The notes under the pieces: generated by a model | Seen by the model: the letters and a program-made list of their open reading frames with translations, nothing else | Database searches by the model: none | Told to the model about the DNA's origin: nothing | Assembly: GCF_964213995.1 (NCBI RefSeq) | Contig: NC_135812.1 | Coordinates: 43,834,001 to 43,898,000, forward strand | Origin: Mustelus asterias | Taxonomy: Eukaryota | Direction: 5' to 3' | DNA: 64,000 nucleotides | Program-made: the position numbers and the translations under genes | Shown: positions 1-60,559 of the stretch, piece after piece | How the letters are laid out: the number at the start of each line of letters is the position of its first letter | Numbering within the stretch: the first letter of the stretch is position 1

Positions 1-860
1 ATATCTGTTTTTATATTGAGCTAGCTTACTCTCAATCTGCCTTACTTTTCTTTATAGCTTTTTTCATGGCTTTCTGTTGACCTTATGACTTCCCAATCCT
101 CTAGTTTCCCACTAGTCTTTGCCACTTTGTATGCTTTATTTCCTTAGATATTCCTGGCCGATTATCCCTTTTCCTACAGTCCTTCCTTTTGCTGAGCATT
201 GTGAAAAATTCCTTTGAAAGTCCTCCACTGTTCCTCAATTTTCCCACCATAAAGTATTTGTTCCCAGCCTACCTTAGCCAAATCCTTCCTCATCCCATTG
301 TAGTCTCCTTTGCCCAAGCACAAGACGCTGGTATTGGAATTTACCTTCTCACCCTCCACCTGTATTTTAAACTTCAACCATACTGTAATCACTCCTCCTG
401 AGAGGATCCCTAACTGTGAGATCATTAATTATTTCTGTCTCATTACACAGGACCAGATCTAGGATAGCTTGGTCCCTCGTAGGTCCCATTACATACTGTT
501 CGAGGAAACTATTGCGGATACATTCTATGAATTCTTCCTCAAGGCTGCCTTGACTGACCTTGTTTGACCAATCGACATGTAGATTAAACCCGCCCATGAT
601 AACTGCCGTACAATTTTTACATGCATCAGTTATATCTTTATTTATTGCCCACCCCACAATGTTATTATTTGGTGGCCTATAGACTACGCCTTTGTGACTT
701 GTTCTCCTTACGATTTCGGATTTTCACCCAAATGGATTCAACCTTTTTCTCCATAGAACCTATACCATCTCTTATGACCACCTTGGTGTCATCCTTAAAT
801 ATCAGAGCTACACCACCTCCCTTACCTTCTTGACTGTCCTTCAGATCAGTCGTAACCATC
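1..860 (-). mobile_element. CR1 LINE ORF2 fragment (APE domain)
   Basis: IMGGFNLHVDW...FLEQYVMGPTRDQAILDLVLCN...SDY; GGGVALIFK. Confidence 0.85.
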
Positions 861-1346
861 CTGCAACCATGTCTCTATAATGGCCACTAAATTATACTCC
901 TTCGCGATGATTTGCGCCGTCAACTTATTTACCTTGTTTTTTTTTCCTGTTCCTACACCTCCTTTAGAATTTTACCCTTCGTTTTATATTGCCTTTCCTT
1001 GTTCGTCTTACCAAAATGTACCACTCTACACTTGTGGATTAAATTTCATTTGCCATATGTCCACCCGTTGACCCAATTTATACCCTCTTGCAGTGCATCA
1101 TGATCCTCCTCACCGCTCACAATACTTCAAAATTTGCAACTGATGCAAAACCTGGAAATGGAGCTGTGCACCCCCAAGTCTTGGTTATTACTGTAGATCA
1201 TGAAACACAGTGATCCTAATGCAGACTCCTGGAGAGCCCCACTGTATACCTTCCTTCAGTCCAAAAAAACCCTATTTCCTGTCACTCAGCCAACTTTATA
1301 TCCGTGTTGCCAATGTCCCTTTTATTCCATTGGCTTTAACTTTGCT

Positions 1347-1560
1347 CAGTAAGAGTTTTAATAACACCAGGTTAAAGTCCAACAGGTTTATTTGGTAGCA
1401 AATACCATTAGCTTTCGGAGCGCTGCTCCTTCGTCAGATGGAGTGGAAATCTGCTCTCAAACAGGGCAGAGACACAAAATCAAGTTACAGAATACTGATT
1501 AGAATGCAAAACTCTACAGCCAACCAGGTCTTAAAGATACAGACAATACAGACTCCACAT
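1347..1560 (-). mobile_element. Penelope-like family A fragment with 8-nt inverted terminus
   Basis: Homologous to the 11111 and 57220 arms; TSD TTTAACTTTGCT at 1335-1346 and 1561-1572; ends in CTCCACAT. Confidence 0.85.
1405..1441 (-). ncRNA. Minimal type I hammerhead ribozyme motif (PLE-associated), intact core
   Basis: CCAT-CTGACGA-A-GGAGC-AGC-GCTCC-GAAA-GC-TA-ATGG: stem I CCAT/ATGG, stem II GGAGC/GCTCC, palindromic AGCT at helix III. Confidence 0.75.
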
Positions 1561-3471
1561 TTTAACTTTGCTGACAGGCCTGTTATGTAACACTTCAAAC
1601 ACCTTTTGGATGTCCAGGTACACGGCATCAAGTCTCACTGTTACTTCACTGAAAAGCTCAATCAAATTTGTTATAGATGATTTACTTGCCCTAAACAAAT
1701 CCATGCTGGTTTTCCTCAATTAATCCACTTTTGTCCATGTTAACTTTCTAACTGCTTTCTCACCATTGAGGTCAAACTGACTGGCTTATAGTTGCTGCAG
1801 TTATTCTTGAACCCTCTTTTGAACAAGCAAATAATATTTTCAAGAATTAGGTGGATTAGAAGATATTGACCAATACCTCTGCAATTTCCAATCCTTCTTC
1901 ACTTAGCATCCTCGGCCACATCTGATTCAGTCTTGGTGACTTAAGAGCTAACCTATCTAATACCTCACCTATCAATTTTTAGCCTTTCCAGTATCTCAAA
2001 TATGGAAACATACTGCTAATGTAGAATTTTACCCTGAACACGTCCTCTCACTGCCATTTACACTATTACCACCCCCTCTATATGAAGATAATTAAAGGCT
2101 TAATTATAACTACTCTATAGGATTTACATCTCTCTAATATTCCTGCAAATTTATTCCTCCATATCTTTCCCACTCGAATACATCCAGTAGTATAATGGGT
2201 GTCTGTTATTTCTTAGTTCTAACCAAATAGATTTGATCCCTGACCCCTTATAGAGTGCCCCCCCTCTCTGGGATTGTACTATCTATAATTAATATGGCCA
2301 CCACTCTCCTTTCTTTCCTTCACACCTTGTGTCCAAGAATATTTAGTACCCAGTCCTGTCTTTTGAGCCAGGACTTTGCTATTGCCACAATATCATACTC
2401 CCATACAACTACCTGCACTGGTAGATCACCAATCTTATTTGCCACACTTCAGATATTCACATGCATGCAGTGTAAATCTGATTTAGATGCGAGCAACCTT
2501 GGATCATTCTCCCAGTGGCGCAGGCCCTGATTCTGAGGTCATTAACATAACAAAGGGGAGTGTGGGCACCAATTCAAATCTGGTTACAACATTCATGATC
2601 TTCTTGTGGAAAAATTTTAACAGCAAAATATTGGCACGAATAGCTTAAATTCATGATCCATGCAAAACTGTTTATAGAAACATTTTAGGTCTGTAATAAA
2701 CATGAATAGCAGAGGAAAAAGTTTAACTCATTTGACCCTGAAGAGTAGCACAACACTGACTTTTTAAAACCACTCTGGGATCAATACTGGGGGAGGAAAT
2801 GGTGCCATTTCTGCTTCTATAAAATATACTTGCTGATGTCAACAGATTGGAACTCTTCCAACTGGAAAATCGAGCAGGCTGCTGACTAGTTATGAAAATG
2901 ATAATTTATCATTTCCTTAACAGCTACAGAATATAACAATGTTAGCACTTGGGAATTGTGAAACACTGAAAGCAATTTTAGCACCCTCCAAGATTCTCTG
3001 CTTCTAATCTTATGAGCTATTTAAAAAATCTATATAATGGAAATTAAAGTAATACACATTGTTAAAGTAGCTACGGAATAAGAATGAATAATTAGTGCAT
3101 TATTTTTGTGTTGTACAATACCAAAATTAAACGGACTGGTATTCAATTCCATGCAAATACAATACTGGTATAAGGGAACACAATCTACCGCGAATCTTAG
3201 TCAGCAAGTCCACCCCCAATACAATGTAATTGCTATTTAATTGCCTGATACTGATCCCTATCAAATCACACCTTATAACACACCCACACAATCACAATGC
3301 AAGGATGATACACTACATTTGAAACTTATCATAAAACCTAGACTGTCGCTTTGAATTACAAATCTTTCAAAGATTAAGTGACTAGGGGTAGATGGTAGAG
3401 TAGTGATGTCAATGGACTAGCAATCCAGAAGACAGGCTAAGGCTCTGTGTTAAATTTTAAATGATGTGGAC

Positions 3472-4317
3472 TCCTAGCCTTTGACCTGCTCTGGTAGCCA
3501 CTGTATTTATGTGGCCAGTCCAGTTCAGTTTCTGGTCATTGGTAACCCCGAGGCCAAAAGAGAAAATGCTGCAAAATCTCAGCAGTTCTGGCAGCATCTG
3601 TAAGGAGAGAAAAAAGCTGACGTTTCGAGTCCACATGAACCTTTGTCACTTTGACAAAGTGTCATGTGGACTCGAAACGTCAGCTCTTTTCTCTCCTTAC
3701 AGATGCTGCCAGACTTGCTGAGATTTTCCAGCATTTTCTCTTTTGGTTTCAGATTCCAGCATCCGCAGTAACTTGTTTTTATCCAGTTGTAACCCTGAGG
3801 ATGTTGATATAATTTTAACCACAGGGTCGAAATCCAACACAAACTGGTGAAATTTAAATTCAGTTAATTAATAAATCTGGAATATAAAGCTAGTCTCAGC
3901 GATGGTGACCATGAAATTATCAACTGTTTAACTATCACCACTTGACATTCAATAGCATTACCATTGCTGAATCCCCCAATATCAACATCCTCAGGGTTAC
4001 AACTGGATAAAAACAAGTTACTGCGGATGCTGGAATCTGAAACCAAAAGAGAAAATGCTGGAAAATCTCAGCAAGTCTGGCAGCATCTGTAAGGAGAGAA
4101 AAGAGCTGACGTTTCGAGTCCACATGACACTTTGTCAAAGTGACAAAGGTTCATGTGGACTCGAAAAGTCAGCTTTTTTCTCTCCTTACAGATGCTGCCA
4201 GAACTGCTGAGATTTTGCAGCATTTTCTCTTTTGGCCTCGGGGTTACCAATGACCAGAAACTGAACTGGACTGGCCACATAAATACAGTGGCTACCAGAG
4301 CAGGTCAAAGGCTAGGA
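3472..4317. repeat. 339-bp near-perfect inverted duplication (3472-3810 / 3979-4317), each arm itself containing a palindrome
   Basis: One mismatch seen between arms; identical ORF translations 3509..3721(+) and 4068..4280(-); 168-bp spacer. Confidence 0.95.
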
Positions 4318-4855
4318 ATTCTGTGGCGTCCCAAAGCCTGTCTACAAGGCACAAGTCAGGAGTGTGATGGATTACTCCCCACTTGCCGAGATGAGTGCAG
4401 CTCTAAAAACACTCAAGCAGCTCAACAGCATCCAGAACAGAGCAGCCCGCTTGATTACCACCCCTTCCACAAACATTTAATCCCTCCACACCGATGAACA
4501 TTGGCCAATCGTGTGTGCCATCTATAAGATGCACTGCAGGAAGTCACCAAGGCTCCTTAAACAGCTCCTTCCAGACCCACGACCACTACCATCTAGAAGG
4601 ACAAGAGCAGCAGCTACCTGGGAACACCACCTAACCAAACCACTCACCATCCTGGCTTGGAAATGTATCACCGTTCCTTCACTGTTGCTAGGTCAAAATC
4701 CTGCAACTCCTTCCCTAATGGCACTGAGCGTACCTACACTTCAAGAGACTGCAGCAGTTCATGGCGGCAGCTCACCACCACCTTCTCAAGGGCAACTAGG
4801 AATAGCAATAAATGTTGGTCTAGCCAGCAACGCCCACATCCTGTAAATGAATAAT
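3935..4855 (+). mobile_element. RTEX/Crack-like LINE 3' fragment
   Basis: LGVTNDQKLNWTGHINTVATRAGQRLGIL; tail ccttctcaagggcaa...aataaatg...gccagcaacgcccacatcc; clade assignment tentative. Confidence 0.65.
4001..4235. mobile_element. Penelope-like family B fold-back insertion inside an RTEX-like LINE
   Basis: ~95-bp inverted arms plus ~40-nt unpaired tail; imperfect 12-bp TSD CCTC(A/G)GGGTTAC at 3989-4000 and 4236-4247. Confidence 0.75.
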
Positions 4856-5204
4856 TAAAAAATATAGTTTGCTAATGGCCTTTAAGGAAAGTCGTCTGCC
4901 ATCCTTATCTGATCTGGCTTACATGCGACAGAAACGTGGTTGACACTTAACTGTCTTCTGAAAGAGCCTAAAAAGTCACTCCATTCAAGGGCAATTAGCA
5001 ATGGGCAACAAATGCTGGCCTTGCTAGCAATGCCCACATTCATGAAAAACTGCCATTGTCAAAATAGTGTTTTTAAAGCCAAAAATCACTCTTAACCTCA
5101 ATACCAAACATACAAAACGAGGTGGAACATCTGCCTTTCCACTTTTGCTTCATTACTCAGCAGACATATTTGCAACATATCTGTTGGTTGTAATTCATAA
5201 TGCT

Positions 5205-5929
5205 AAAGTGCAAAGGGACTTGGGAGTCCTAGTCCAGGATTCTCTAAAGGTAAACTTGCAGGTTGAGTCCGTAATTAAGAAAGCAAATGTAATGTTGTCA
5301 TTTATCTCAAGAGGCTTGGAATACAAAAGCAGGGATGTACTTCTGAGGCTTTATAAAGCACTGGTTAGGCCCCATTTGGAGTACTGTGAGCAATTTTGGG
5401 CCCCACACCTCAGGAAGGACATACTGGCACTGGAGCGGGTCCAGCGGAGATTCACACGGATGATCCCAGGAATGGTAGGCCTGACATACGATGAACGTCT
5501 GAGGATCGTGGGATTATATTCATTGGAGTTTAGGAGGTTGAGGGGAGATCTGATAGAAACTTACAAGATAATGAACGGCTTAGATAGGATGGACGTAGGG
5601 AAGTTGTTTCCATTAACAGGGGAGACTAGGACGCGGGGGCACAGCCTTAGAATAAAAGGGAGTCACTTTAGAACAGAGATGAGGAGAAATTTCTTCAGCC
5701 AGAGAGTGGTGGGTCTGTGGAATTCATTGCCACAGAGGGCTGTGGAGGCCGAGACGTTGAGCGTCTTCAAGACAGAAATTGATAAATTCTTGATTTCTCG
5801 AGGAATTAAGGGCTATGGGGAGAGAGCGGGTAAATGGAGTTGAAATCAACCATGATTGAATGGTGGAGTGGACTCGATGGGCCGAATGGCCTTACTTCCG
5901 CTCCTATGTCTTATGGTCTTATGGTCTTT
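5205..5929 (+). mobile_element. Young 5'-truncated CR1 LINE 3' end
   Basis: Open frame QRDLGVLVQDSLK...LYKALVRPHLEYC...RRLRGDLIETYKI...WNSLP; (cttatggt)n tail. Confidence 0.92.
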
Positions 5930-6154
5930 AACAAAGAATCAATTAAATGAAATTAACAGTATTCAAATGATGGAGATTGTTATTTCCCAGAAACTTGATT
6001 AAAACTAAGTGTACGCTTGCTATAAATAGAACCATTTTGGCGAGGTCTTACTTCCCATTACAGAATCTTGGCATCTCTCTGAAGACCGTTAAAACTTCTC
6101 GCAAGGTTTGACCACCCTGTCACTGACATTGCGGTAGCAGTGCTCATTACAAAA

Positions 6155-6498
6155 CATAGATCATAAGATCATAAACCCTACAGTGCAGAAGGAGGCCATT
6201 CGGCCCAACGAGTCCGCACCGACCACAATCCCACCCAGGCCCTGCCCCCACACATTTACCCGCTAATCCCTCTAACCTACGCATCTCAGGACTCTAAGGG
6301 GCAATTTTTAACCTGGCCAATCAACCTAACCCGCACATCTTTGGACTGTGGGAGGAAACCGGAGCACCCGGAGGAAACCCACGCAGACACGAGGAGAATG
6401 TGCAAACTCCACACAGACAGTGACCCGAGCCGGGAATTGAACCCGGGACCCTGGAGCTGTGAAGCAGCAGTGCTAACCACTGTGCTACTGTGCCGCCC
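6155..6498 (-). mobile_element. HE1-type V-SINE
   Basis: tRNA-like head (tggttagcactgc...ggttcaattccc), V domain, CR1-like tail. Confidence 0.88.
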
Positions 6499-6799
6499 AA
6501 TCTGCAATGAAGGCTGATACAGCTTACCACCAGACGGCCCAGGGCGAGCAAAATCAATTAGAATTACCAGCCTTTACTGATAGTTCAACCAGTGGTACTC
6601 ACTTAAGTCAAATGCCAAGGGATCAGTCAATCAGCTCCAGGAACTTACATTACTCAATCCAACTCCCCTACTTTATAACAACGATTACACTGCATAAATA
6701 TTCTGTTGGTTGTAGAGTGCATTGGGATGTCCTGAGGTTGTGAAAGGTCCTGTATAAATTCAGGTACTCTCTTTTCTAGGCAGGACTGAACTCAACATA

Positions 6800-8092
6800 A
6801 GGACTGAGGAAGACCATATGGCCCATCAAGCCAACTCTACCATTCAATAGGATTGCAGCTGATCTTGGGCTTCAACAGCATTTTCCTGTCTGCTCCACTT
6901 ATCCCCCAATTCCCTGAGACCAAAAATCTATCTCACCTTTAAATATGTTCAATGACAGTGCATCCACCATCCTCTGGGGTAGAGAATTCCAAAGATTCAC
7001 AACTCTTTGATCGAAGAAACTTTGGCTCATCTCAAACCCAAATGATCAGCCCCTTGTGCTGAAGCAGTGCCTTCTTTTTCTAGGCACCCTAGCCAGGGGA
7101 AACAACATTTCAATGTTGATCCTGTCAAGCCCCTTCATAATCTCGAATGCTTCAAATAAATCATCTCTCATGCTTCTCAACTCCAGAAAATAGAGACCCT
7201 ATTTTACTCTGCTCTCATCACAAGACAACTCTCACATCCCACCCAAGGACCAACTCGTGAATCTTCACTTGACTGCCTTCAATGAAAGTATATACTGCCC
7301 TTCAAATTAGAGACCAAAATTGCATACAGTATTCCAAGTGTGGCCTCATCAGAGCCCCTTACAATTGTAGCAAGGCTTCTTTATTTTCGAACCAGTTTAC
7401 CTTTGTGATAATGGGATAAAGATGCTGGCTCAGACACTGGACTCTTGGAATCTGAAGTAACAAGTGAGTCATAGAGGTTTACCACATGGAAACAGGCCCT
7501 TCGGCCCAACTTGTTCATGCCGCCCAGTTTTTACCATTAAGCTAGTCCCAATTGTCTGCGTTTGGCCCATATCCCTCTGTACCCATCTAATCCATGTAAC
7601 TGTCTAAAAAGGCTTTTTAAAAGACAATTGTACCTCTACTACTACCTCTAGCAGCTTGTTCCAGACACTCGCCACCCTCTGTGTGAAAGAATTGCCCCTC
7701 TGGATCCTTTTGTATCTCTCCCCTCTCACCTTAAACCCAAGCCCTCTAGTTTTAGACTCTCCTACCTTTGGGGAAAGATGTTGACTATCTACCTTATCTA
7801 TGGCCCTCATTATTTTCTCGACCTCTGTAAGATCACCCCTAAGCCTCCTATGCTGCAGGGAAAAAGGTTCCAGCCTCTCCTTAAAACTCAAACCATCAAG
7901 TCTTGGTAACATCCTAGTAAATCCTTTTTGCACTCTCCAGTTTAATAATATCCTTTCTATGATAGGGTGACCAGAACTGTACACAGTACTTACCAATGTC
8001 TTGTACAGCTTTGACAAGATGTCCCAATTCCTGTATTCAACGTTCTGACAAATGAAACCTAGAATGCTGAATACCTTCTTCACCACCCTGTC
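6800..8092 (-). mobile_element. Two CR1 3' fragments (old ~6800-7410; younger ~7468-8092)
   Basis: RVQKGFTRMLP...RRLRGDLTEV...KTRGLGFKV...WNKL. Confidence 0.82.
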
Positions 8093-8109
8093 ACTGAATT
8101 ATGCCACCA

Positions 8110-9760
8110 TTTAAACTGTCACCACTTCTTTACTGTTGCTGGGTCGAAATCCTGGAACTCGCTCCCTAACAGCACAGTAAATGTACCCACACCTCGTGGA
8201 CTGCAAAGATTCAAGGGGGCAGCTCACCACCACCTTCTCAAGGGCAATGAATGCTGGTCTAGCCAGTGAAACCTAGATCCTTGAATTAATAAAAACCCTA
8301 CTACATCCCCTCAGTTGATGAATTAGTACTCTTCCATGCTGGTCACCACTTGGACGAAGCACTGACGTGGCAAGTGCACAGAGTATAATCTGGGTGGTGG
8401 ATTTCAATGTTCACCACCAATGGTAACTCAGTCGCACCACTACCGACAAATGGCTGAGTCCTAAAGGACATAGCTGCGAGACTGTTCTGCAGCATTTGAT
8501 GAGGGAACTAATAAGAAGGAAAAATCTACTTGACCTCGTTCTTACCAATGTACCTGCCAATGAAACATCTGTCCATGACAGTATTGGTAGGAGTGACAAC
8601 CGCACAGTCCTCATGGAGACGAATTCCTGTCTTCACATTGGCGATGCCACACAACACACTGGAGGGTACTACCACCATATTAAATATGGGATAGACTTCA
8701 AACAGGCCTAGCAACGCAAAACTGAGCATCCATCAGCAGCATAATTATATGCAACCAGTCTGTAACCATATGGCTCGGCATATCCCCTACTTTACCACTG
8801 ACCAGGGCTGATCCCCTGGCTTAATGAAGAGTGCAGGAGCGCATTCCAGGAGCATCATCAGGCATACTAGCCATGCTCAGTTTGGGTTCCACTAGGGCCA
8901 CTCAGCTCTTGACTTAATTTAAGCCTTGGTCCAAATATTGGTTTGGAGTCATGCCAAGCACAAAGAATGATGATTGTGGTTGTTGCAGGTCAATCATCTT
9001 TGTTCCAGGACATCACTGCAGAAGTTTTGCAGGGCAATGCCCGAGGCCCAACCATCTTCAGTTGCTTCATCAACATTCAGTTACAATTACCATTGCTAAA
9101 TCCTCCACTTCCAACCTCCTGGGAGCTACTCTTGACCAGAAATTGAACTGGGCCAGCCATATCAATACTGTGGCTACAAGAACAGGTCAGAGACTAGGAA
9201 TTCTGCAGAGAGTAACTCAGCTCTTAGCTTCCCAAAGCCTGTCCACCATCTATCTACAAGACTCAAGTCAGGGGTGTAATGGAACACTCTCCACTTGCCT
9301 GGATAAATGCAGTTCCAACAACCCTCAAGCTCAACACCAAACTTCAAAAATGATTCAGGACAGCTCACTTATTTGGCACCCCATCCACTACAATCAACAT
9401 TCACTTTCTACACCACTTGTGCACAGTTGCAGCAATGTATTCCATCTGCTCTTTCAACAGCATCTTGCAAACCTGCAACCTCTACTATCTAGAAAGACAT
9501 GGGCAGCAGGTATAGGGGAACACTACCTGCAATTTCCCCTCGGAGTCACACTCCATCTTGACTTGGAAGTACAGCACCTACACTGTGGCTCGGTCAAATT
9601 CCTGTAACTCCTTTACTAGCAGCATTGTGGGTGTTCCAACAACACATGAACTGCAATGGTTCAAGAAGGCAGCACATCACCACTTTCGAGGGCAATTTGG
9701 GATGGTCAATAAATGCTAACCTAGCCAGCAATGCCACATCCCATGAAAGAATTTAAAAAA
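8110..9760 (+). mobile_element. RTEX/Crack-like LINE fragments
   Basis: NLLDLVLTN...SVHDSIGRSDNRTV (APE); DQKLNWASHINTVATRTGQRLGIL; shared 3' tail. Confidence 0.65.
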
Positions 9761-11110
9761 CGCTACCTGTTGAATCAAGGATTAGAATAGCCACTACCAC
9801 TGATTCAATTTCAGAGGCCCTTGGGTATGATAATTAGAGCTTAGCCAATTGTAGGAGATGGAACATGACTTCCTTGTTTACAGAAATCATTTAAAAGTTT
9901 AAGTATGTAATAAATCAGATGTGAATAGACTTTTGTTTGGTTTTATGGGACAAATGTAATTGGATTGCAAGAGCTCCTTCAATATGCGCTATATATTGCA
10001 ACTTAGAACCCGAATGTACACAAATCAAAAAAACAGGCTTAGCATTTATGCTGCCCTTTTCATTGGCAATATATATATTTATCTAAATAGCTCTGTACAA
10101 ACTTTGTCTAGCTTCCCGAGTTCTGCCTTGCAGCAGAGAAAAATCAAGTACAGGAATTTTTGGTCACAGTATCTGTTGAACTATTTACCATTCATACATG
10201 AATTATTAATTTACATTTGTGAATTCACATGCACTGATGAGTGTATAGGCTAGACGAGCTATTACTGATGATCTTCAATCAAAGATCAATTGCTCAACCC
10301 CTTCTCTGAAAGCAAGGCCCCTCAGTGTAAAACAACTTCACATTAAGGCCAGGTTTTTATTTTTGATTTACAATGACCTAAGTGCCACAACAGTTTACAA
10401 TTGTTTTTAATTGACGACATAATAGGCATGGGTTCAAGATGAAACATGCACAGTAGCTCTATGTTGATCATTTCATTATAAGTTACTTAGGAAACTATTC
10501 TGCTCTGCTTCTGAAACAGGAAGAATAATTATTAAATGAATGAAAGGAGTGGATGGGCTAGCTACAATTTTCAATTTCCTCTGTACAAATATATGTACTT
10601 TTTAGTACAGAAACTTAATTTCAACTTAGTTCAACTTATTATAAATGATGCAAATCAGTTTTCCTTAATGTTTATATTAAAAATAAATCCATGTTCAGAT
10701 GTGAAATATATTTTTGAAACTTGCAATTTCAGTGATCAGAAATTGCTTAAACATACACAGGCCATAAAAAGATAATCAGTTGTGTGTACTTGGATATGCT
10801 GCAGAATTGAACAGATTTTTAATACAACATGTCCCATATTTGATGTTAATTAGAATACTTGCATTGTAAATTAAACCCCAGTTTTATTCCTCGAGGCTGT
10901 TGTTAGGTGATGGAGCACTCTAAATTTATTAACCAGAATTTCTTAGTCTATATAAGCTGCAGGAAAAATCTAATTACAGATCATGGAGGGTTCAAAGTGG
11001 TAGATTCAGATACGTTAACATGTGCCTCACTCTTATAACAGCATTCAGAATGACAGAATAAAACTAATTCATTTCATGGGACGTGAACATCGCATGGCCA
11101 GTATTTGTTG

Positions 11111-11331
11111 TAAGAGTTTTAACACCACCAGGTTAAAGTCCAACAGGTTTATTTGGTACCAAATACCATTAGCTTTCTGAGCGCTGCTCCTTCGTCTCCA
11201 CTCCATCTGACGAAGGAGCAGCGCTCCGAAAGCCAATGGTATTTGCTACCAAATAAACCTGTTGGACTTTAACCTGGTGGTGTTAAAACTCTTACTGTGT
11301 TTACCCCAGTCCAACGCCGGCATCTCCACAT
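11111..11331. mobile_element. Short Penelope-like family A fold-back insertion
   Basis: Arms 11110-11196 and 11209-11295 plus ~36-nt unpaired tail; TSD CAGTATTTGTTG at 11099-11110 and 11332-11343; terminus shared with the 57188 element. Confidence 0.88.
11203..11239 (+). ncRNA. Minimal hammerhead motif, U of NUH triplet mutated to C
   Basis: CCAT-CTGACGA-A-GGAGC-AGC-GCTCC-GAAA-GC-CA-ATGG. Confidence 0.6.
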
Positions 11332-11534
11332 CAGTATTTGTTGCCCATCTCTTAATAGCTCTCAAGAAAGTGGTGGAGAATCCCCTTGTTGAACTGCAGC
11401 ACTCCATGTGGTGAGGGAGTTTTAAGATGTAGCAAGATAATCAATGTAATTATACAAATTGCCCCAATTCAGAACCCAATATAATCTACTAAATTGTACT
11501 ACAGTGAGCAAACTTAGTTAAGTGCTCATCCTGA

Positions 11535-11690
11535 AGCAAAATACTGCAGAAGCTGGGAAATCTGAAATAAGAGCACAAAATGCTGGAAATACTCAGCAGA
11601 TCTGACAGTTCTAAAAGATCACCCTGAAACATATACTGTTTCTCTCTCCACAGATGTTGTTAGATCGGCTCAATTACCAGCATTTCTGCA
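11535..11690. mobile_element. Degenerate PLE family B-related fold-back remnant
   Basis: aaaatactgcagaagctgg...aatgctggaaatactcagcag followed by inverted tctctccacagatg...ccagcatttctg. Confidence 0.55.
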
Positions 11691-11691
11691 T

Positions 11692-12166
11692 CCTTTCTGG
11701 TTGTATCACAGCTTGGTATGGCTCCAGCTCTGCCCAAGGCCACAAGGAACTATAAAAGGTCGTGAATGTAGCCCAATCCATCATGCAAACCAGCCTCCCA
11801 TCCATTGACTCCGTCTACACTTCCCGCTGCCTCGGCAAAGAAATCAGCATAATTAAGGACCCCATGCATCCCAGACACTCTCTCTTCCACCTTCTTCCAT
11901 CGGGAAAAAGATACAAAAGTCTGAGGTCACGTACCAACTGACTCAAGAACAGCTTCTTCCCTGCTGCTGTCAGACTTTTGAATGGACTTACCTTGTATTA
12001 AGTTGATCTTTCTCTACACCCTAGCTATGACTATAACATTACATTCTGCACCCTCTCGTTTCCTTCCCTATGTATGTTATGCTTTGTCTGTATAGCGCGC
12101 AAGAAACAATACTTTTCACTGTATGTTAATACATGCAACAATAATAAATCAAATCAAAATCAAATC
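11692..12166 (+). mobile_element. Rex1/Babar LINE 3' end
   Basis: Close match to 18421-18885; aataaatcaaatcaaa tail. Confidence 0.8.
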
Positions 12167-12411
12167 ATTTTTGTTTAAGTTAGCAAGCACTCATTAAATT
12201 TCAATTGTACAGTTGCTTTAACCCTTTGTAAATAAATGGAGGCCTACTCCATTTTTGTTTTCACAAAAATTGCGGCTCTATTTCATGCGCAAGTAAATTA
12301 ATCACTAGTCCTTCAGAAAAAGGGAAGAATGGAAATATAGAATTGAACTCAGAATATGATTTGAAAGAATTTCCACAATTACAATACAATTGTTACATTG
12401 CTGACACTTAC

Positions 12412-13142
12412 CATTTACTCCAGGTCTTGCACACTCTCATACAGATGCATAGGTCCTTATGGCTGAGGTTCCTAAATATTGACAGCCACACCTCCCGTTG
12501 CATCACATGTTCTGAGCCACCAGCCAATGGTAGAGAATCAGGTTCAGGGCTGTCAGGTGGAGGCCGCACCACATGCCGCTCCATTTGAAATGGCTTAGGA
12601 GGAGACTGCACAGGGAGTTTGCTTAGTATCTGAGGACGAGCCAAACTTCCTAGAACCTTGTGACAAAGTTGACTGGATGGCCCATTTTTCTTCTTCAATG
12701 AAACCTCCACAGTCCTAAAGGAGTTTTTTTGAATACTCTCTCCTCGCAGGGAATAATAGTTATTTTCTCGATCCTTTGAGGCCAAAAGTGAATTACTTTT
12801 TATGTTTCTTGCATTCTCTTCATCTTCGTCCTCCTCTTCCTCATCATCTTCCTCACTAAAAATATCATTAGACAGTCTCCTGAGCTTGGACCTTTGATTA
12901 TCTGCCTTTGCAATAGACCTTGGACTAGATCCCCCACTGCTTCCTGCTGATCTCTGTAGGCTGGATTCGGATCCAGAACTTGAATCGGAGCCAGTATCAG
13001 AACTAGAGCTAGAGCTGGTTGCTTCATTTCGGTTGACACGTTTCATCATTTGTCGTATCCGTTCTATTCTTTCTGCATCTTCCGATCTTTCAAGGTGATT
13101 TACTTTTGTGTCTTCTTCAGAATTTGGAGTCGGTTTCCGTTT
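12412..13142 (-). CDS. KDM2B/FBXL19: Large exon: Ser-rich/acidic region plus F-box (731 nt, ends in phase 2)
   Basis: [11 protein letters not shown]...[59 protein letters not shown]; acceptor tttttgtctttag, donor TG|gtaagt; the following LRR exons were not found in 1-12411. Confidence 0.95.
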
Positions 13143-48944: not shown

Positions 48945-51555
48945 GAGGGATGAAGTTAGAAATAGGAAAGGAGCGGTCACATTGTTAGGAGTTGTCTATA
49001 GGCCCCCAAATAGTAATAGAGATGTGGAGGAAGAAATTGCAAAGCAGATTATGGATAGGTGTGGAGGTCACAGGGTAGTTGTCATGGGTGACTTTAACTT
49101 TCCAAATATTGATTGGAACCTTTATAGGTCGAATAGTTCGGATGGGGCAGTTTTTGTACAGTGTGTGCAGGAGGGTTTCCTGACACAATATGTGGATAGG
49201 CCGACAAGAGGTGAGGCCACATTGGATTTGGTACTGGGAAATGAACCGGGCCAAGTGTTAGATTTGGTTGTGGGAGAGCACTTTGGAGATAGTGACCACA
49301 ATTCGGTGTCTTTCGTTATTGCAATGGAGAGGGATAGGACCATACGGCAGGGCAAGGTTTATAATTGGGGGAAGGGTAGTTATGATGCGATTAGAAAAGA
49401 ATTAGGGAGCATAAGATGGGAACAGAAACTGTCAGGGAAAGGCACAAATGAAAAGTGGAGCTTGTTCAAGGAATAAATACTGCGTGTCCTTGATAGGTAT
49501 GTCCCTGTCAGGCAGGGAGGAAATGGCCGAGTGAGGGAACCATGGTTCACAAAAGAGGTTGAATGTCTTGTCAAGAGGAAGGAGGAAGCGTATGTAAGGA
49601 TGAGAAAACAAGGTTCAGTTGGGTCCATTGAGGGTTACAAGTTAGCAAGGAATGAGCTGAAAAAAGGGCTTAGGAGACTCGGAGGGGGCATGAGAAGTCC
49701 TTGGCGGGTCGGATCAAGGAAAACCCCAAGGCCTTTTACTCTTATGTGAGGAATAAAAGAATGACCAGGGTGAGGTTAGGGCCGGTCAGGGACAGTAGTG
49801 GGAACTTGTGCATGGAGTCAGAAGAGATAGGAGAGGCGATGAATGAATACTTTTCTTCAGTGTTCACCAAGGAGAGGGGCCATGTTTTTGAGGATGTGTG
49901 AGATACAGGCTGATAGGCTGGAGGAGGCGGACGTTCTGAGGGAAGATGTATTAGCAATTTTGAAAAACCTGAAGGTCGATAAGTCCCCTGGGCCAGAGAG
50001 ATATATCCTAGGATTCTTTGGGAGGCAAGGGATGAGATTGCAGAGCCTTTGGCTTTGATCTTTCGGTCCTCACTGTCCACGGGGATAGTCATGATGTGGA
50101 GACGCCGGGGATAGTAGTGCCAGAGGACTGGAGAGTGGCGAATGTTGAATGTTGTTCCTCTGTTCAAGAAAGGAAATAGGAATGACCCTGGTAATTGTAG
50201 GCCGGTTAGTCTTACTTGGGTGGTCGGCAAGTTAATAGAAAAGGTCCTGAGGGATAGGATTTATGACCATTTGGAAAGATGCAGCTTAATCCGGGATAGT
50301 CAACATGGATTCGTGAAGGGCAAGTCTTGCCTCACAAATTTGATTGAATTTTTTGAGGAGGTAACTAAGTGTGTCGATGAGGGTAGAGCAGTTGATGTCA
50401 TATACATGGATTTTAGAAAGGCGTTTGATAAGGTTCCCCATAGTCGGCTCATGAAGAAAGTAAGGAGGTGTGGGATAGAGGGAAATTTAGCCAATTGGAT
50501 AAGTAACTGGCTATCTCATAGAAGACAGAGGGTGGTGGTGGATGGAAAATTTTCAGACTGGAGACCAGTTACCAGCGGTGTACCACAAGGATCAGTGCTG
50601 GGTCCTCTGCTACTTGTGATTTTTATAAATGACTTGGAGGAAGGGGCTGAAGGGTGGATCAGTAAATTTGCAGATGACACCAAGATTGGTGGAGTAATGG
50701 ATGAGGTGGAGGGCTGTTGTAGGCTGCAAAGAGACATTGATAGGATGCAGAGCTGGGCCGAAAAATGGCAGATGGAGTTTAACCCTGATAAGTGCGAGGT
50801 GATTCATTTTGGTAGGACAAATTTGAATGCGATTACAGGGTCAAACGTAGGGTTCTGAGGAATGTGGAGGAACAGAGAGATCTTGGGGTTCATATCCACA
50901 GATCTCTGAAGGTTGCCACTCAAGTGGATAGAGCCGTGAAGAAGGTCTATAGTGTGTTAGCGTTTATTAACAGGGGGATTGAGTTTAAGAGCCATGGGGT
51001 TATGCTGCAACTGTACAGGACCTTGGTGAGACCATATTTGGAATATTGTGTGCAGTTCTGGTCACCTCACTATAAGAAGGATGTGGAAAGAGTGCAAAGG
51101 AGATTTACCAGGATGCTGCCTGGTTTGGAGGGTAGGTCTTATGAGCAAAGGTTGAGGGAGCTAGGGCTTTTCTCTTTAGAGCGGAGGAGGTTGAGAGGCG
51201 ACTTAATAAAGGTTTATAAAATGATGAGGGGGATAGATAGAGTGGACGTTCAGAGACTATTTCCTCGGGTGGATGTAGCTGTTACTAGGGGGCATAACTA
51301 TGAGGTTCGTGGTGGAAGATATAGGAGGGATGTACGAGGTAGGTTCTTTACTCAGAGTGGTTGGGGTGTGGAATGGACTGCCTGCTGTGATAGTGGAGTC
51401 GGACACTTTAGGAACTTTCAAGCAGTTATTGGACAGGCACATGGAGCACACTAGAATGATAGGGAGTGGGATGGCTTGATCTTGGTTTCGGAAAAGGTCC
51501 GGCACAACATCGTGGGCCGAAGGGCCTGTACTGTGCTGTACTGTTCTATGTTCTA
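48945..51555 (+). mobile_element. 5'-truncated CR1 ORF2 (APE and RT) inserted in an L2-like remnant
   Basis: GVVYRPPNS...GDFNFP...SDHN; [14 protein letters not shown]; [10 protein letters not shown]; FADDTK; tail ttctatgttcta. Confidence 0.95.
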
Positions 51556-53193
51556 TAACCCTCAGATATCTGCACTCCCCTAATTCCAGCTCGGGAACCT
51601 TCCTTATTTTAATCACACCAGCATTGAAGGCAGCGGTCGTCAGCCATCTAAACCCCAAGTTCCGAAATTCCCTCCCTAAACCTCGCCAACTCTCTACCTC
51701 TTTGACCAAGGTTTTAGTAACATGTTGTCATAGCTCCTATGTTGCTTGGTGCCATACTTTGTTTTATAATACTTCTGTAAAGTGGTTTGAAATGCTTTAT
51801 TACATTAAAGGCACTATATAAATTCTAGTTGTTGTTGAAGGGAGTTCAATTAAAAAAGGGAAGGTATTAAATTCAATATTTAAATGTATTCCTTAGGATC
51901 TACCTTACTTTCAAAGGCACTATGTTTTATTGTTTTAAGGTTCATCACAATCAGTACTCAGGTAAAATATATTTGCATGCACAAGTCAAATGAGCTCATG
52001 GTTTAACTGGTTATAGTTGTCTAATGGCCTTGGAAAGGTCCTACTGCCAGGAGTAATGTTGGACCACTGCCATTACAGCACTTGATTATATTTAAACAAC
52101 TAATCTTCATGAGCTTTCATTAAAAGGAAGTACATTTGAAAAGTTTAACCTTTCCTGATCCATGCCTTGAACTTTTATGTTCAGTTAAAGGGTCAAACGA
52201 GCAAACATTTTAAAATGGCAATTATAAATTCATTAGAATGAAACTTTTTATTCAATGTCATTATTTTGGTTAGCCACCTGCATTGGGGATTGTACACCAT
52301 CAACCAGCCTTATTTTTTGCTGTGATTCAAATATGTTCATAGAATCAGATTCCTCTCTACCACTTCTCTCTTCTGTTCCTCTACAATACAACAGTGACTA
52401 CATTTTAAAAATATTTAATTGGCTATAAAGCACTTTGGGACATCCAATGATCATGGAAAAGTGCTGTACAAATGCAAATTCTTTTTATTTATTCTTTGCC
52501 ACTCTTCAATATCTTTCCCCATCTCATCTTCACAATCATGTTGTAAAAACACCTTTCATCCATTCTTTAACACTTCAAAAGTGCAATAGTGGGATTTTGC
52601 AAGTTTTTCTCTGCATCTTCTGACTATAGCAGTTGTTTTATTCTAGCTAGCTCCATTAAAAAGTAATAATTGTCAGTCGCTTGAACATCGTCAGGACTTC
52701 TTATTGGATTGCATGAAATTGCACAATTCATACAAGAAGCCACATCATGCCACTAACAATATACAACAGCTCAAATAAGCAGTTATGGAAAAAGGGCTAG
52801 TGTGCGCAAAACAAGGTCATGTGACATGCTTGATTAGATAATGCACTACTATTTTTCCATTTGAGATCGAAAATGATTGTTTCCATCTCTTAACTATCCC
52901 ATCTTTACATAAAAGATAATAAACTACAGCTCAAGTGTGTATATGAAATGAATTTATCATACAAGGGAATGACCAATTCTATTCATCAGAACATTTAATG
53001 CAATATTTTCCATCAAATAATCAAAATAATGTTGTGACCTTTTACCAACATTTCTCCCCCCCAAAATAAGTTTAGGAATAGAAAGGGCTGCAACATTTCA
53101 AATATAAATTACAGGATAATCCCATTACCACTGAAATTGGCTTCTTCCAGAAATTAGCCAGCATAATTAAACATTCTATGTCCTTGCACTTAC

Positions 53194-53418
53194 AGCAATA
53201 CACTGTCTCTTGATACAGGACTGCTTCATTCTGCCAGGGCCTCCAAATTTCTTCATGTCTTTGCAGAAGTGACATTCGCCACACTCCGAGCGTAAGCAGG
53301 CTTCGCATTTGCGACATCGTGTCCTGCGTCTGCGTGCACCACTTGTTGATTTATGAACAAGTAGTTTAGGTCCCGATGAAGGGGCAGGCCGAGGTTTTAG
53401 TCTTGTTGAGGCCCTGGA
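53194..53418 (-). CDS. KDM2B/FBXL19: Exon encoding CXXC zinc finger of KDM2B/FBXL19-subfamily protein (75 codons, phase 0-0)
   Basis: [75 protein letters not shown]; acceptor ttttttaaacag, donor GCT|gtaagt; 225 nt. Confidence 0.96.
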
Positions 53419-54267
53419 CTGTTTAAAAAAAAAAGCAAACAACCTTATAGAATTGTGCAAAATATAGCATAAAGACAATTACAAAGCCACATTTTTCCAT
53501 CCATTCGCATTCAATGGGAAAAACAAAAAGCTTTTACTGCATACTGAATATCTTTTTTTAAAGACAGGAGAGAGATGAAGGCATTTCTGAACATTTAGCA
53601 CTACCTGGTCTCTTTGCATCACATACATGATGCAATGGACTACCATACTTCAGTTACTCATAATTCTGCGAATGACATAAACTGCAGAACTTGGTGATGT
53701 TTTTTAACCAAATAACAAAAACAGAATGCTTTTACAGAGCCGAACCACCCTTTTACGTACTACAGCTTTGCTTGGTCCACACAGACCTAATGACTTGTTA
53801 TGCAAAGCTGCTAAAGCTCACCCGACTGGTTACTCTTGTAGAATACAGTAAAACTGTGCCATCAGCATTTATAAATGAAACGGGTTTTGAGGATTGGGAA
53901 TGAACATATTAACAGTTATTCAGTGGATTAGCATGGCAGGTAAGACAAGTTGAGTGAACCCACCATCAGCCTCTAAACACAAGAGGCTCAGCACTTTTCA
54001 GAGAATGATCCAAATTAATTGATTAGCTGGCCAAATTGGGGTCTCAATGTATAGTACCTACTTGCTGCTTGTTTGCAATTAAGATTCTCATGAGGCAAAC
54101 GGTGAATGTGAAGTGTGCAGCTGTGATTTGGTGCTAAATAAAGACTATGTACTGGAGATGCAGCAAAGCGGGAAACAAGAATAATGGGAAGTGCCAAAGA
54201 AAGAGGCACTCGTGCCCACCAGTTTAAATGCAACATTGAAAGTCAGACTACTGATTTGCTCTCTTAC

Positions 54268-57187: not shown

Positions 57188-58302
57188 TGGAGATGCCGGC
57201 GTTGGACTGGGGTAAACACAGTAAGAAGTTTAACAACACCAGGTTAAAGTCCAACAGGTTTATTTGGTAGCAAAAGCCACACAAGCTTTCGGAGCTCTTA
57301 GCCCCTTCTTCAGGTGAGTGGGAATTCTGTTCACAAACAGAGCTTATAAAGACACAGACTCAATTTACATGAATAATGGTTGGAATGCAAATACTTACAA
57401 CTAATCAAGTCTTTAAGAAACGAAACAATGTGAGTGGAGAGAGCATCAAGACAGGCTAAAAAGATGTGTATCGTCTCCAGACAAGACAGCCAGTGAAACT
57501 CTGCAGGTCCACGCAACTGTGGGAGTTACAAATAGTGTGACATGAACCCAATATCCCGGTTGAGGCCGTCCTCGTGTGTGCGGAACTTGGCTATCAGTTT
57601 CTGCTCAGCGACTCTGCGCTGTCGTGTGTCGCGAAGGCCGCCTTGGAGAACGCTTACCCGAATATCAGAGGCCGAATGCCCGTGACCGCTGAAGTGCTCC
57701 CCAACAGGAAGAGAACAGTCTTGCCTGGTTATTGTCGAGCGGTGTTCATTCATCCGTTGACGCTGCGACAACGGATGAATGAACACCGCTCGACAATCAC
57801 CAGGCAAGACTGTTCTCTTCCTGTTGGGGAGCACTTCAGCGGTCACGGGCATGCGGCCTCTGATATTCGGGTAAGCGTTCTCCAAGGCGGCCTTCGCGAC
57901 ACACGACAGCGCAGAGTCGCTGAGCAGAAACTGATAGCCAAGTTCCGCACACACGAGGACGGCCTCAACCGGGATATTGGGTTCATGTCACACTATTTGT
58001 AACTCCCACAGTTGCGTGGACCTGCAGAGTTTCACTGGCTGTCTTGTCTGGAGACAATACACATCTTTTTAGCCTGTCTTGATGCTCTCTCCACTCACAT
58101 TGTTTCGTCTCTTAAAGACTTGATTAGTTGTAAGTATTTGCATTCCAACCATTATTCATGTAAATTGAGTCTGTGTCTTTATAAGCTCTGTTTGTGAACA
58201 GAATTCCCACTCACCTGAAGGGGCTTAGAGCTCCGAAAGCTTGTGTGGCTTTTGCTACCAAATAAACCTGTTGGACTTTAACCTGGTGTTGTTAAACTTC
58301 TT
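57188..58302. mobile_element. Penelope-like element (family A) fold-back insertion, GIY-YIG endonuclease C-terminus in both arms
   Basis: Arms 57220-57759 and 57769-58305, 9-nt loop; LRQRMNEHRS...PVGEHF...RRVAEQKLIAKFRTHEDGLNRD on both strands; 12-bp direct repeat ACTATTATGAGG at 57176-57187 and 58303-58314. Confidence 0.92.
57280..57316 (-). ncRNA. Minimal hammerhead motif, intact core
   Basis: CAC-CTGAAGA-A-GGGGCT-AAG-AGCTCC-GAAA-GC-TT-GTG; the mirror copy near 58212-58245 has a 3-nt core deletion. Confidence 0.7.
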
Positions 58303-60559
58303 ACTATTATGAGGAGCAAGGGGATTATTCCCAGTGTTCTGTTCAATAGTTGTGTCTCAATTAACAATCACAAAAAAAGATTAGCTGGTCACTAGCATAT
58401 TGCTGTTCTTGGGATCTTGCTGTGCACATGTTGGCTGCCATGTTTCCTATATTATCTGTTATCACAGTTGTAATAAAGTACTTCATTGGCTGTAAAGTGC
58501 TTTGGGACATCTCTTGTCGTCAGTGCTATATAAATACACCTTTTGGATTTTTTATTATAGACCGCCAAATAAGACAGAAATTGAACAAGAGACTATCGAC
58601 AGTTCAAAAGAGATTTGTGGAAGTAATAACACAATATGTTATTACTACCCCAAATTACCTTTTAAATGGGGAATTTAAAAAATGGTTATTTAAAATGGGG
58701 AAAGGTCCTTGGAATAGACACAGAACTGTTTCCAAGTACTTTATAAATCCAAAAGGAAAAATATGGACCTGGGCTGGAATGCTCTGGCCATTTACATCCT
58801 GCTGCTGCTGCAGAGACGACAGAATTTGGCGCCCAGTCAAATCTCCATTCACTGCAGTGGGACAGGAGAATCCTGCTGATATGAACAGCCAGAGAATCCC
58901 GCCCCTGGTTTTGGATAATGAACCTGGACAAATTAGAAACTAGGTGGTGGGAAAATATCTTGATTGAAAAATAATTTGCATTTATATAACACCTTTTTCA
59001 TGACCACCAAGCATTTCAATATGCTTTACAGCTAATGAAGTATTTTCGAAGTGTAGTTATTGTTGCAATGTAGGTAACACCAGCAAATTCCCATACATGT
59101 GATAATGGTCAGATAATCTGATGAGGAGTTTGGGATAAATATTGACCAGGATACCAGGGATAATGCCCCTGTTCTTCATAAGGGGCATTATGGGCCTCTC
59201 ATCTCATCTGATCTGAAGGATGGCGGAATGCAACGCTCCCTCTATACTGCACTAATGTGCCTTAATCTTTGTGCTCAAGCCCTGGAGGTGTACTCGAACA
59301 CACAACTTTGACTCAGAAGTCAGAAAGCCGTGGCTGACATACACAAGTGATCACAAATACATATACAATAAGAAAAGCAGAATTAAAAATCAAAAAGTTG
59401 CCAAAGAGCAGATTTGAAACGTTGAAAGGGATCCCTGCTAAAATTAACTGATGAAACAATTGACAAATAAAGGGAGGAATTTTGGCAAAAAAAATTCGAA
59501 GCATCATAAAAGTGGGAAAAAGTGTTCCACGCTGGTCTCATGGGTGAGCTTGGCACCGCAATCTTCTGGCACACAGTTTTTTTAACAGCTGAGAGCTTTG
59601 TGGTGGGTGGGTGGGGGGAGAAAGGAGGAAAGAGAGAGAAAAAGAAAGAGTGGCAGAGCCTAAATACGCTGGGGAAGCTGGCTGCAGGGTGCTCGGGCGC
59701 CACTGCTCGGTTGCCCCGGTCTCCTTCTGAAACAGGAGACTTCCTCCCACTCCACCTCATCCCACAGACTTCAGTTTCCACCCCCACATCATTGGAGGCT
59801 TTGTCATTGCCTCTCCCCTCCCCATCACCAACACAGGTTGCTGGCAGCAGGGCATCAGGACCCTCCTGATGAGTCCATTGGCAGAACCCATTGCACGATC
59901 CTCCCTTCTGACCACTTCCCACACACAAGCTGCCCCGTCATTGGGCATACCCCACTCGTCATAGCCCCACCCGCACACAGGCCACATCACCTTGGCAGTG
60001 CCCTGACACACTTATGGTGCCAACTGGGCTCTCCCAGGGTGTCAACTGTGCATTGCCTGGCTATGCTCTCAGCCAGCTGGGGGCTTCAATGCCCTCCAAT
60101 CCCACCAGCGTGGCCATGGCACCTGGTTTCTGCTACATATTAGTAATTCTGCCAGTGTGACATCATGCCAGCGATTGGAAGAATTGCGAGGGTGAAGCAG
60201 CCGTGCCAGGTAAGTATTTTAAAATTGTTAATGGGCTTTGTATCCTTTGTGGGTGCGAAGCCATTCTCGCCGGCAAAACAAGGCTGGGAGGATAGCAAAT
60301 GGACTCATGTTTTTCTCCCTCGCATGCTATCTTCCTGGCTTGCATTGCTGATCGACTGGCATGGCAAGCCAGCAAGATCACGACTAAAATGTTTGACCAC
60401 CAGTGAGAACAATTTGTAATTGTGATGGGCAAGATCAAATTAAAAGCATTTCAGAATAAGAGTAAAGGGATTGAAGGAAAGGTCAGATTGCCATGGATTT
60501 GAATTTAGGAGGCAAAAGGAGGCATGTGAAAAATTAGTATCAATGAAGTGACAGAATTG

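Follow-up and report, generated by a model that had tools for sequence, protein, structure and literature searches.

A young local inverted duplication with a candidate Penelope stub at its edge in the genome of Mustelus asterias

Analysis of a 64,000-nt stretch of the 3.68-Gb Mustelus asterias genome (hereafter called the window) revealed that an old SINE-like repeat within it carries a real, young insertion produced by locally templated inversion. The left edge of this insertion matches the place where a family of Penelope-like elements (family A) starts its cDNA, and it is fairly probable that the event began with a Penelope cut and the synthesis of a short stub, whichever of two routes then generated the inverted copy. 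The route that we favor, and to which we tentatively give just under an even chance, is an aborted Penelope integration that was filled by extension of the second cut end on a local template. The locus represents one case and not a pathway, and such an outcome looks rare rather than routine.

Anatomy and age of the insertion

Sequence comparison confirmed the structure put forward in the original prediction, namely an 8-bp repeat enclosing a 339-bp reverse-complement copy that has one mismatch and lies 168 bp from its source. The insert (3461–3810, 350 nt) is located between two copies of the direct repeat AATTTTAA (3453–3460 and 3811–3818), which likely constitute the target duplication of the insertion, and is composed of the 11-nt filler ATGATGTGGAC and an inverted copy of positions 3979–4317. 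The two 339-nt arms (3472–3810 and 3979–4317) are separated by a 168-nt spacer and are 99.7% identical, with a single mismatch (3622 G versus 4167). Because the new arm includes the private LINE/family-B junctions of its source, and because the best alternative copies among the fetched loci reach only 95% for the LINE part and 90.5% for the family-B part, the arm was certainly copied locally. There is no microhomology with the source at the right junction (3810/3811 versus 3978). The insert contains no poly(A), and it does not start at a TTTT/AA position, which is the geometry of the LINE-1 endonuclease. RNA folding of the insertion hairpin gives a nearly perfect stem of 339 bp at -716.5 kcal/mol. 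We take the target repeat to be of the SINE class, and the LINE fragment inside it is presumably CR1/L2-like. Overall, the repeats of the window seem typical of a cartilaginous fish. The AT-rich 11-mer at the insertion point is near-palindromic and could have been left by transposon excision or represent an earlier filler.

Two families contribute matches to the filler. Its first 10 nt (ATGATGTGGA, 3461–3470) are found again at 50091, and TGATGTGGA is present at 11325 on the minus strand. The proposed family-A start of about 10 nt would fit these 10 nt, but the filler is 11 nt long and its last C (3471) belongs to neither family A nor the source arm. Positions 3464–3473 (ATGTGGACTC) are an exact match to family B within the arms (4116−, 4153+, 3627−, and 3664+), and this 10-mer has only four other occurrences in 950,990 other bases. 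The family-A and family-B matches overlap by 7 nt.

Table 1. Features of the locus and reference features elsewhere in the window
Feature	Coordinates	Strand	Basis
Old SINE-like repeat, 5′ part (target element)	3385..3449	+	Aligned with 29 genomic copies
AT-rich 11-mer foreign to the SINE; appears to predate the insertion; contains the left target duplication	3450..3460	.	Missing from SINE alignment; contigs of organisms A and B reach 3455 and 3461
Left copy of likely target duplication, 8 bp, AATTTTAA	3453..3460	+	Sequence
10-nt stub matching family-A Penelope cDNA start; plus strand reads as cDNA	3461..3470	-	Polarity from GIY-YIG frame in L178
10-nt exact family-B match overlapping the stub; would account for C at 3471; possible alternative or additional filler source	3464..3473	.	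Sequence comparison
New arm, inverted copy of 3979–4317, 1 mismatch	3472..3810	-	Identity to source and junction contigs
Right copy of likely target duplication, without microhomology to source	3811..3818	+	Sequence
Remainder of the 168-nt spacer: SINE continuation and start of LINE fragment	3819..3978	+	Sequence comparison
High-copy LINE 3′ fragment inside the SINE, left border approximate	3930..4862	+	Sequence comparison
Source arm: LINE fragment broken by family B	3979..4317	+	Sequence comparison
Family-B insertion with two inverted halves (4043–4137, 4141–4235) and 12-bp target duplication 3989–4000/4236–4247 (1 mismatch)	4001..4235	.	Architecture; empty LINE sites
SINE 3′ part	4866..5048	+	Sequence comparison
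Ordinary family-A insertion, inverted partial end, 10-bp target duplication (reference case, L024)	11110..11333	.	Sequence comparison
Host exon ending inside F-box domain, followed by GT donor; locus lies downstream on the minus strand	12411..13142	-	Domain evidence
17-nt family-A micro-insertion between 9-bp direct repeats (reference aborted insertion)	50090..50106	-	Sequence
Host exon with CXXC zinc finger	53179..53478	-	Domain evidence

The nested palindrome of four ~95-bp units in alternating orientation that had been described for this region is indeed present (3554–3648/3652–3746, 94%; 4043–4137/4141–4235, 93%), but it simply reflects the doubling of a family-B insertion that was older and was itself composed of two inverted halves. 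LINE sites empty of family B skip 247–253 nt in contigs. By its architecture, family B would be a Penelope-type element and a non-autonomous candidate, and no ORF linked to it was found. Some copies have a hammerhead-like core motif (5 of 39 aligned stretches on one strand and 1 of 39 on the other); an Rfam scan of 3000–5200 gave no hammerhead, its only matches being sub-threshold microRNA hairpins. Non-autonomous hammerhead repeats have been tied to Penelope pseudo-LTRs (10.64898/2026.07.22.740005), which bears on family B.

Contigs from run X22 contain both junctions of the insertion. One of them is identical to positions 3150–3497, with 0 differences at a depth of 17.2, and covers unique flank, repeat, filler, and 26 nt of the arm, and another is identical to 3760–3880 across the right junction, again with 0 differences, at a depth of 20. 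Note that X22 may be the assembly's own source sample, in which case its support is not independent of the individual, and that in X24, a second sample of the same organism, the unique flank is uncovered, so that no independent individual is available. The near identity of the arms and the missing X24 coverage could be viewed as signs that the left arm was created by a fold-back or by misassembly. Such an artefact is extremely improbable: the possibility of a fold-back had been raised along with the original prediction, and the X22 contigs speak against it by spanning both junctions without differences and at flank depth. Moreover, the combination of a target duplication, an 11-nt filler, and a mismatch is unlike a read fold-back.

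Contigs orthologous to this region in organisms A and B carry 8 and 16 substitutions, respectively, over about 310 nt. They align through 3455 and 3461, after which 69 and 74 letters are unmatched. Both cease to match where the insertion begins, which places the insertion after the splits from organisms A and B, and because they align into the AT-rich motif, this motif appears older than the insertion. A joined empty site is not among the alignment rows listed for these organisms. The expected empty allele would have AATTTTAA and would lack ATGATGTGG.

Initiation sites and aborted insertions of family A

Judged from its sequence, family A is an endonuclease-bearing Penelope-like element with a GIY-YIG domain. 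The GIY-YIG catalytic pattern was recognized by eye in a frame of locus L178, and an atlas search with the family-A frame returned a best match of 0.97 and a cluster that has PF01541 on 23% of its members. A Pfam scan of the frame gave no GIY-YIG match, and no full-length copy was present among the 8 long loci fetched. Because the L178 frame runs opposite to TGATGTGGAG, this motif reads as a cDNA start.

The 21-nt start motif of family A occurs at least 42,663 times in the genome, and copies often continue beyond it into a tail. Ordinary insertions, as seen at 13 loci (e.g., L082, L103, L107, L182, and L283), have a right end that was extended from a second initiation site, resulting in an inverted partial pseudo-LTR. 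These second ends lie 31–40 nt from the first start and have 0–3 nt of microhomology. Because 3 of the 13 have none, a junction without microhomology is normal for family A. The original prediction regarded the motif as a family-A Penelope terminus and, specifically, as the end of the element's own RNA. The assignment to a Penelope-like element holds, and the 10-mer is found in cDNA polarity at the target duplication, but the copies that extend past the motif into a tail and the distant second ends contradict an RNA end. The motif is instead the place where insertions start, an internal initiation site. In a biochemical study, a purified Penelope protein was found to cut both strands and to extend each of them, with a preference for AT-rich ATT sites and with initiation at two internal sites that have no homology to the cut DNA (PMC11167929); the tail and second-end offset of family A, read from genomic copies, would fit two such sites.

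Inverted self arms are present in many of the 30 best full family-A copies, and a non-self inverted arm is present in none of them. Target duplications of the family are slightly AT-rich (0.61 versus 0.56 in flanks). A young family-A insertion at 57220–58305 of the window has a 452-bp inverted repeat (4 mismatches, 9-nt spacer) and ordinary self architecture.

Aborted insertions were sought with a pattern consisting of the family-A start followed by five non-consensus bases, and reversed patterns served as controls. The numbers of matches and control matches were 276 and 21 for 12-nt stubs, 148 and 6 for 13 nt, 151 and 0 for 15 nt, 147 and 0 for 16 nt, and 74 and 0 for 17 nt, where some of the 12- and 13-nt matches belong to other repeats. 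A sample of 182 of the 796 stubs was taken, first in genome order (30, 30, 42, 50, and 30 by length), and includes eight near-identical segmental copies and one overlapping pair. Target duplications were accepted if they comprised at least 10 bp within 1.4 kb, 8 within 60 nt, or 7 within 20 nt. By these rules, a duplication is present for 96 of the 182 stubs, with 33 enclosing the stub only, 33 the stub and more of the element, and 30 the stub and a remainder. The remainders that were inspected proved to be short fillers, element sequence missing from the reference panel, or spurious calls. Duplications range from 7 to 16 bp with a mode of 12–13 bp, and the 8-bp length occurs in 4 of 96, although the rules disfavor short duplications at long distance. 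Because aborted stubs of 12–17 nt inside target duplications are common, the 10-nt stub at our locus is credible. Stubs of this kind are normally produced by family A, whereas long local inversions are the rare outcome. The stub-only insertions (33 of 182) may correspond, for Penelope, to the poly(A)-only insertions of LINE-1, and repeat annotation would miss them.

None of the 182 sampled stubs has an inverted copy of at least 25 nt of non-element flank. The corresponding 95% upper bound on stubs with a local inverted arm is 1.6% (n = 182) or 3.1% (n = 96), and an outcome of 0 of 96 has a probability of 0.56 at the rate of LINE-1 templated insertions. When short inverted fillers were tested, 1 of 11 was clear (L096, an 11-nt copy of adjacent flank, p about 0.02) and two were at ~0.05; the set is not significant. 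Post-stub fillers at L096, L085, L148, L234, and L289 may be short inverted flank copies or repeated stub re-priming, as in iterative end-joining. Other stubs are more complex. At L293 (around 1500–1680), a stub begins an exact 78-nt direct duplication of a host SINE and a second partial stub is present at the joint, which may be one event. At L251 (1500–1890), a 13-bp duplication encloses a 17-nt stub that is followed, in unchanged orientation, by 359 nt from the N-terminal part of a Penelope-like ORF, and assignment by eye makes this a long jump within element RNA. A complex stub with repeated starts is present at L266–L273 (C8, 4.6–5.1 Mb) in eight segmental copies ~50–100 kb apart.

Local inverted copies were also sought irrespective of stubs by an ungapped inverted-repeat scan of about 954 kb of non-redundant loci selected by motif. 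Besides our locus, the scan recovered many element-self inversions and two convincing cases of local inverted copying that have no stub. One is a 435-bp copy in a LINE (L214:1096–1530/2287–2721; 4 mismatches, spacer 756, next-best copy 74%). The other is an exact 74-bp copy at the 5′ junction of a SINE (L118:417–490/962–1035; next-best 93%), the source of which is ~150 bp beyond the 3′ junction of the SINE insertion, and it suggests that local inverted copying can accompany the integration of other retroelements. No duplication of at least 8 bp was found in the inspected stub-less cases. Local inverted copying is not special to Penelope in this genome, and the broader proposal that PLEs generate local palindromes did not survive, given that no sampled stub shows such a structure and that local inverted copies also arise without a stub.

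Several loci were considered as second cases and rejected. L110 and L251 contain the element's own tail and ORF, L118 is a SINE without a stub at its junction, and L227 has a closer copy elsewhere (98.7% versus 97.4%). Young high-copy repeats explain L047, L111, and L186, spurious duplications explain L115 and L156, and L158 consists of G-rich simple repeats.

Candidate routes to the inverted copy

The strand of local transcription constrains the possible templates. The locus lies downstream of a minus-strand host exon and is probably located in an intron of the CXXC/F-box gene, presumably a KDM2/FBXL19-type gene by its domain order. No later host exon was recognized within 42 kb downstream, a range made up of positions 1–12,400 and the next 30 kb. 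A continuous switch from the left end needs plus-sense RNA, and because the host gene is on the minus strand, its pre-mRNA cannot be the template. This argues against the earlier idea of one continuous strand that switches to nascent RNA. In contrast, the right end needs a minus-sense template, for which host pre-mRNA is the right one, with 4317–3979 transcribed just before the cut site.

The evidential value of the 10-mer depends on its position. As a bare sequence, it has 2,785 genomic matches versus 423 for the control and is swamped by a LINE-internal motif and by chance; 1 of 30 inspected matches looks like a family-A start. At the edge of a duplication, arithmetic from genome counts gives a chance of ~2 in a million per position, or at most about 1 in 10,000 if different registers, ends, and families are allowed. 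Its polarity and position are as expected for Penelope, but 7 of its 10 nt are also found in family B within the copied stretch. If the filler was derived from family B, then Penelope adds only ATG (3 nt), possibly a slippage repeat; if it was derived from Penelope, then family B adds the C and two bases of overlap. A genome-wide search for recurrent jumps from family A to family B gave 3 matches versus 1 for the control, and none started with ATGATG. A rough comparison of rates, in which aborted stubs multiplied by a LINE-1-like 0.6% are set against generic events that have a duplication and a secondary filler at the motif, favors Penelope over generic repair by some 2- to 20-fold, with inputs that are guesses. 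Our assessment that a Penelope cut and stub fairly probably started the event is based on this rough advantage.

In the route that we favor, a family-A Penelope ribonucleoprotein would cut both strands of the AT-rich site with an 8-nt stagger, as the duplication suggests. The left 3′ end would be extended from the first internal initiation site and halt after 10 nt, in the manner of the common stubs, and the right 3′ end would be extended on a local template, with a start 168 nt away and a run of 339 nt. This template would be minus-strand and could be nascent pre-mRNA of the host gene or the bottom strand, resected and folded back on itself. Joining of the two extended ends would complete the event. 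More speculatively, a brief re-annealing to family B (8 nt) could provide the C together with 7 nt complementary to the stub, and all 11 filler bases would thereby be accounted for. Second-end extension is favored because the right end is where synthesis of the inverted part usually starts in family A, often without microhomology.

Additional observations agree with this route. The stub adjoins the duplication, as in 96 of the 182 sampled stubs, short stubs are far above reversed-pattern controls, and family A has a GIY-YIG frame. Its second ends show the 31–40-nt offset with little or no microhomology, the minus-strand host gene has a donor upstream of the locus and would supply minus-sense RNA suited to the right end, and a chance 10-mer at the edge is rare. 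Extension of both strands and an AT-rich preference are known for Penelope protein in vitro (PMC11167929). Several points weigh on the other side. Neither the 182 stubs nor the 30 best full copies include a second example; once the match to family B is taken into account, Penelope explains just 3 further nt, which could be slippage; the 8-bp duplication is at the short end for the family; and the AT-richness of family-A duplications is slight. The intronic position is itself inferred, with no downstream exon recognized in the regions inspected, and stub-less local inverted copies exist (L214 and L118).

The same anatomy is predicted if synthesis was continuous from the left. From the left 3′ end, either the Penelope reverse transcriptase or a host polymerase that took up its 10-nt product would proceed onto the top strand at 4317 and copy 339 nt toward the cut, and the new strand would then be joined to the right end. 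The last 7 nt of the stub could anneal to the top strand at 4119–4125 (family B), the landing site at 4316–4321 offers imperfect pairing, and L251 illustrates a jump inside the RNA of the element itself. Dissociation of LINE-1 cDNA and its pairing with nearby DNA have been proposed to give rise to templated insertions of that element (10.1101/2024.08.27.596794). However, the landing site has no exact microhomology, jumps from family A to family B are not recurrent, and family A normally builds the inverted part from the other end. With host pre-mRNA excluded by strand, an RNA template would have to be antisense RNA or a plus-sense transcript from the decayed SINE. We therefore consider a continuous switch unlikely.

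Penelope cDNA might also have played no part, and a staggered break might have been repaired by the host through templated insertion, with fold-back synthesis and end joining. The filler would then be 8 nt from family B and a 3-nt slippage repeat, and the family-A match would be a coincidence aided by the 7 shared nucleotides. Fold-back templated inverted insertions at double-strand breaks can arise by polymerase-theta-type end joining. The family-B match in the copied region is exact over 10 nt, rare elsewhere, and explains C 3471; the scanned loci include young inverted copies of local origin that lack a stub; and the bare 10-mer is common and seldom a family-A start. Nevertheless, the secondary template must hit the one motif in common with family A and, at the edge, a 3-nt match in register. 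In addition, the inspected stub-less cases lack a duplication of at least 8 bp, and position 3979 offers no microhomology from which a fold-back could be primed. Templated inversions of the fold-back type are an established outcome of breaks, but those in yeast mostly measure 5–34 bp, versus 339 bp here (PMC11724301). On balance, we regard repair without Penelope as somewhat unlikely.

Relation to known insertion systems

How Penelope elements finish integration and why inverted structures arise are questions still under study (PMC8557442 and PMC11167929). Host DNA in the inverted part suggests separate priming of the second end, for which any nearby sequence could serve as template. A general version of this idea, in which Penelope enzymes would routinely use nascent host RNA or local DNA as the template for the second cut end and thereby leave local palindromes tagged by a 10–20-nt stub, is improbable. 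If it were true, the more than 40,000 family-A insertions would allow for tens to a few hundred such events (<1.6–3% of stubs), Penelope would give rise to double-stranded RNA hairpins in introns, and its insertions would record two-ended priming in vivo. The hundreds of stubs per length class and the second-end offset provide genomic support for two internal initiation sites and may prove more valuable than the locus on its own. No paper describing a Penelope stub combined with a local inverted copy, or micro-insertions of Penelope, was found in the open-licence literature.

Insertions of endonuclease-bearing Penelope-like elements have an inverted 5′-truncated copy, a 30–40-bp tail, and an 8–10-bp target duplication (PMC8557442, PMC3846280, and PMC11167929). 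Our locus would resemble these canonical insertions in its target duplication, its start at an internal site, and its inverted second part, but the inverted part is host flank rather than the element's own pseudo-LTR. In Adineta vaga, Penelope captured host DNA (an NRPS gene and non-coding sequences) between pseudo-LTRs (PMC3846280). Non-self DNA within a Penelope-made target duplication would be common to both cases, whereas the cargoes there come from other loci within whole pseudo-LTR frames and the copy here is local, inverted, and accompanied by a 10-nt stub. Yeast fold-back templated insertions (PMC11724301) likewise contain an inverted copy of local sequence and a short filler from a secondary template, such as family B may have been here, but they usually measure tens of bases, depend on microhomology for priming, and have neither a retroelement start nor a long target duplication.

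Retroelement chimeras have been attributed to switching or twin priming (PMC13174262). For human LINE-1, published data include three insertions with locally templated DNA and three with reciprocal-end inversions (PMC11702581), as well as 22 templated insertions beside 3,598 truncated somatic insertions, usually <250 bp and within 15 bp (10.1101/2024.08.27.596794). As in these templated insertions, which make up <1% of insertions there, a retroelement 3′ start and a copy of neighboring host DNA would be combined at our locus in one event. Unlike them, the locus would involve a GIY-YIG Penelope and the germline, has an element share of only 10 nt, and has no poly(A), and its template is 339 bp at a distance of 168 bp, a comparison that is drawn from the main texts of those studies. 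The locus works like the LINE-1 type of templated insertion, which is the closest known kind, but it is no LINE-1 event.
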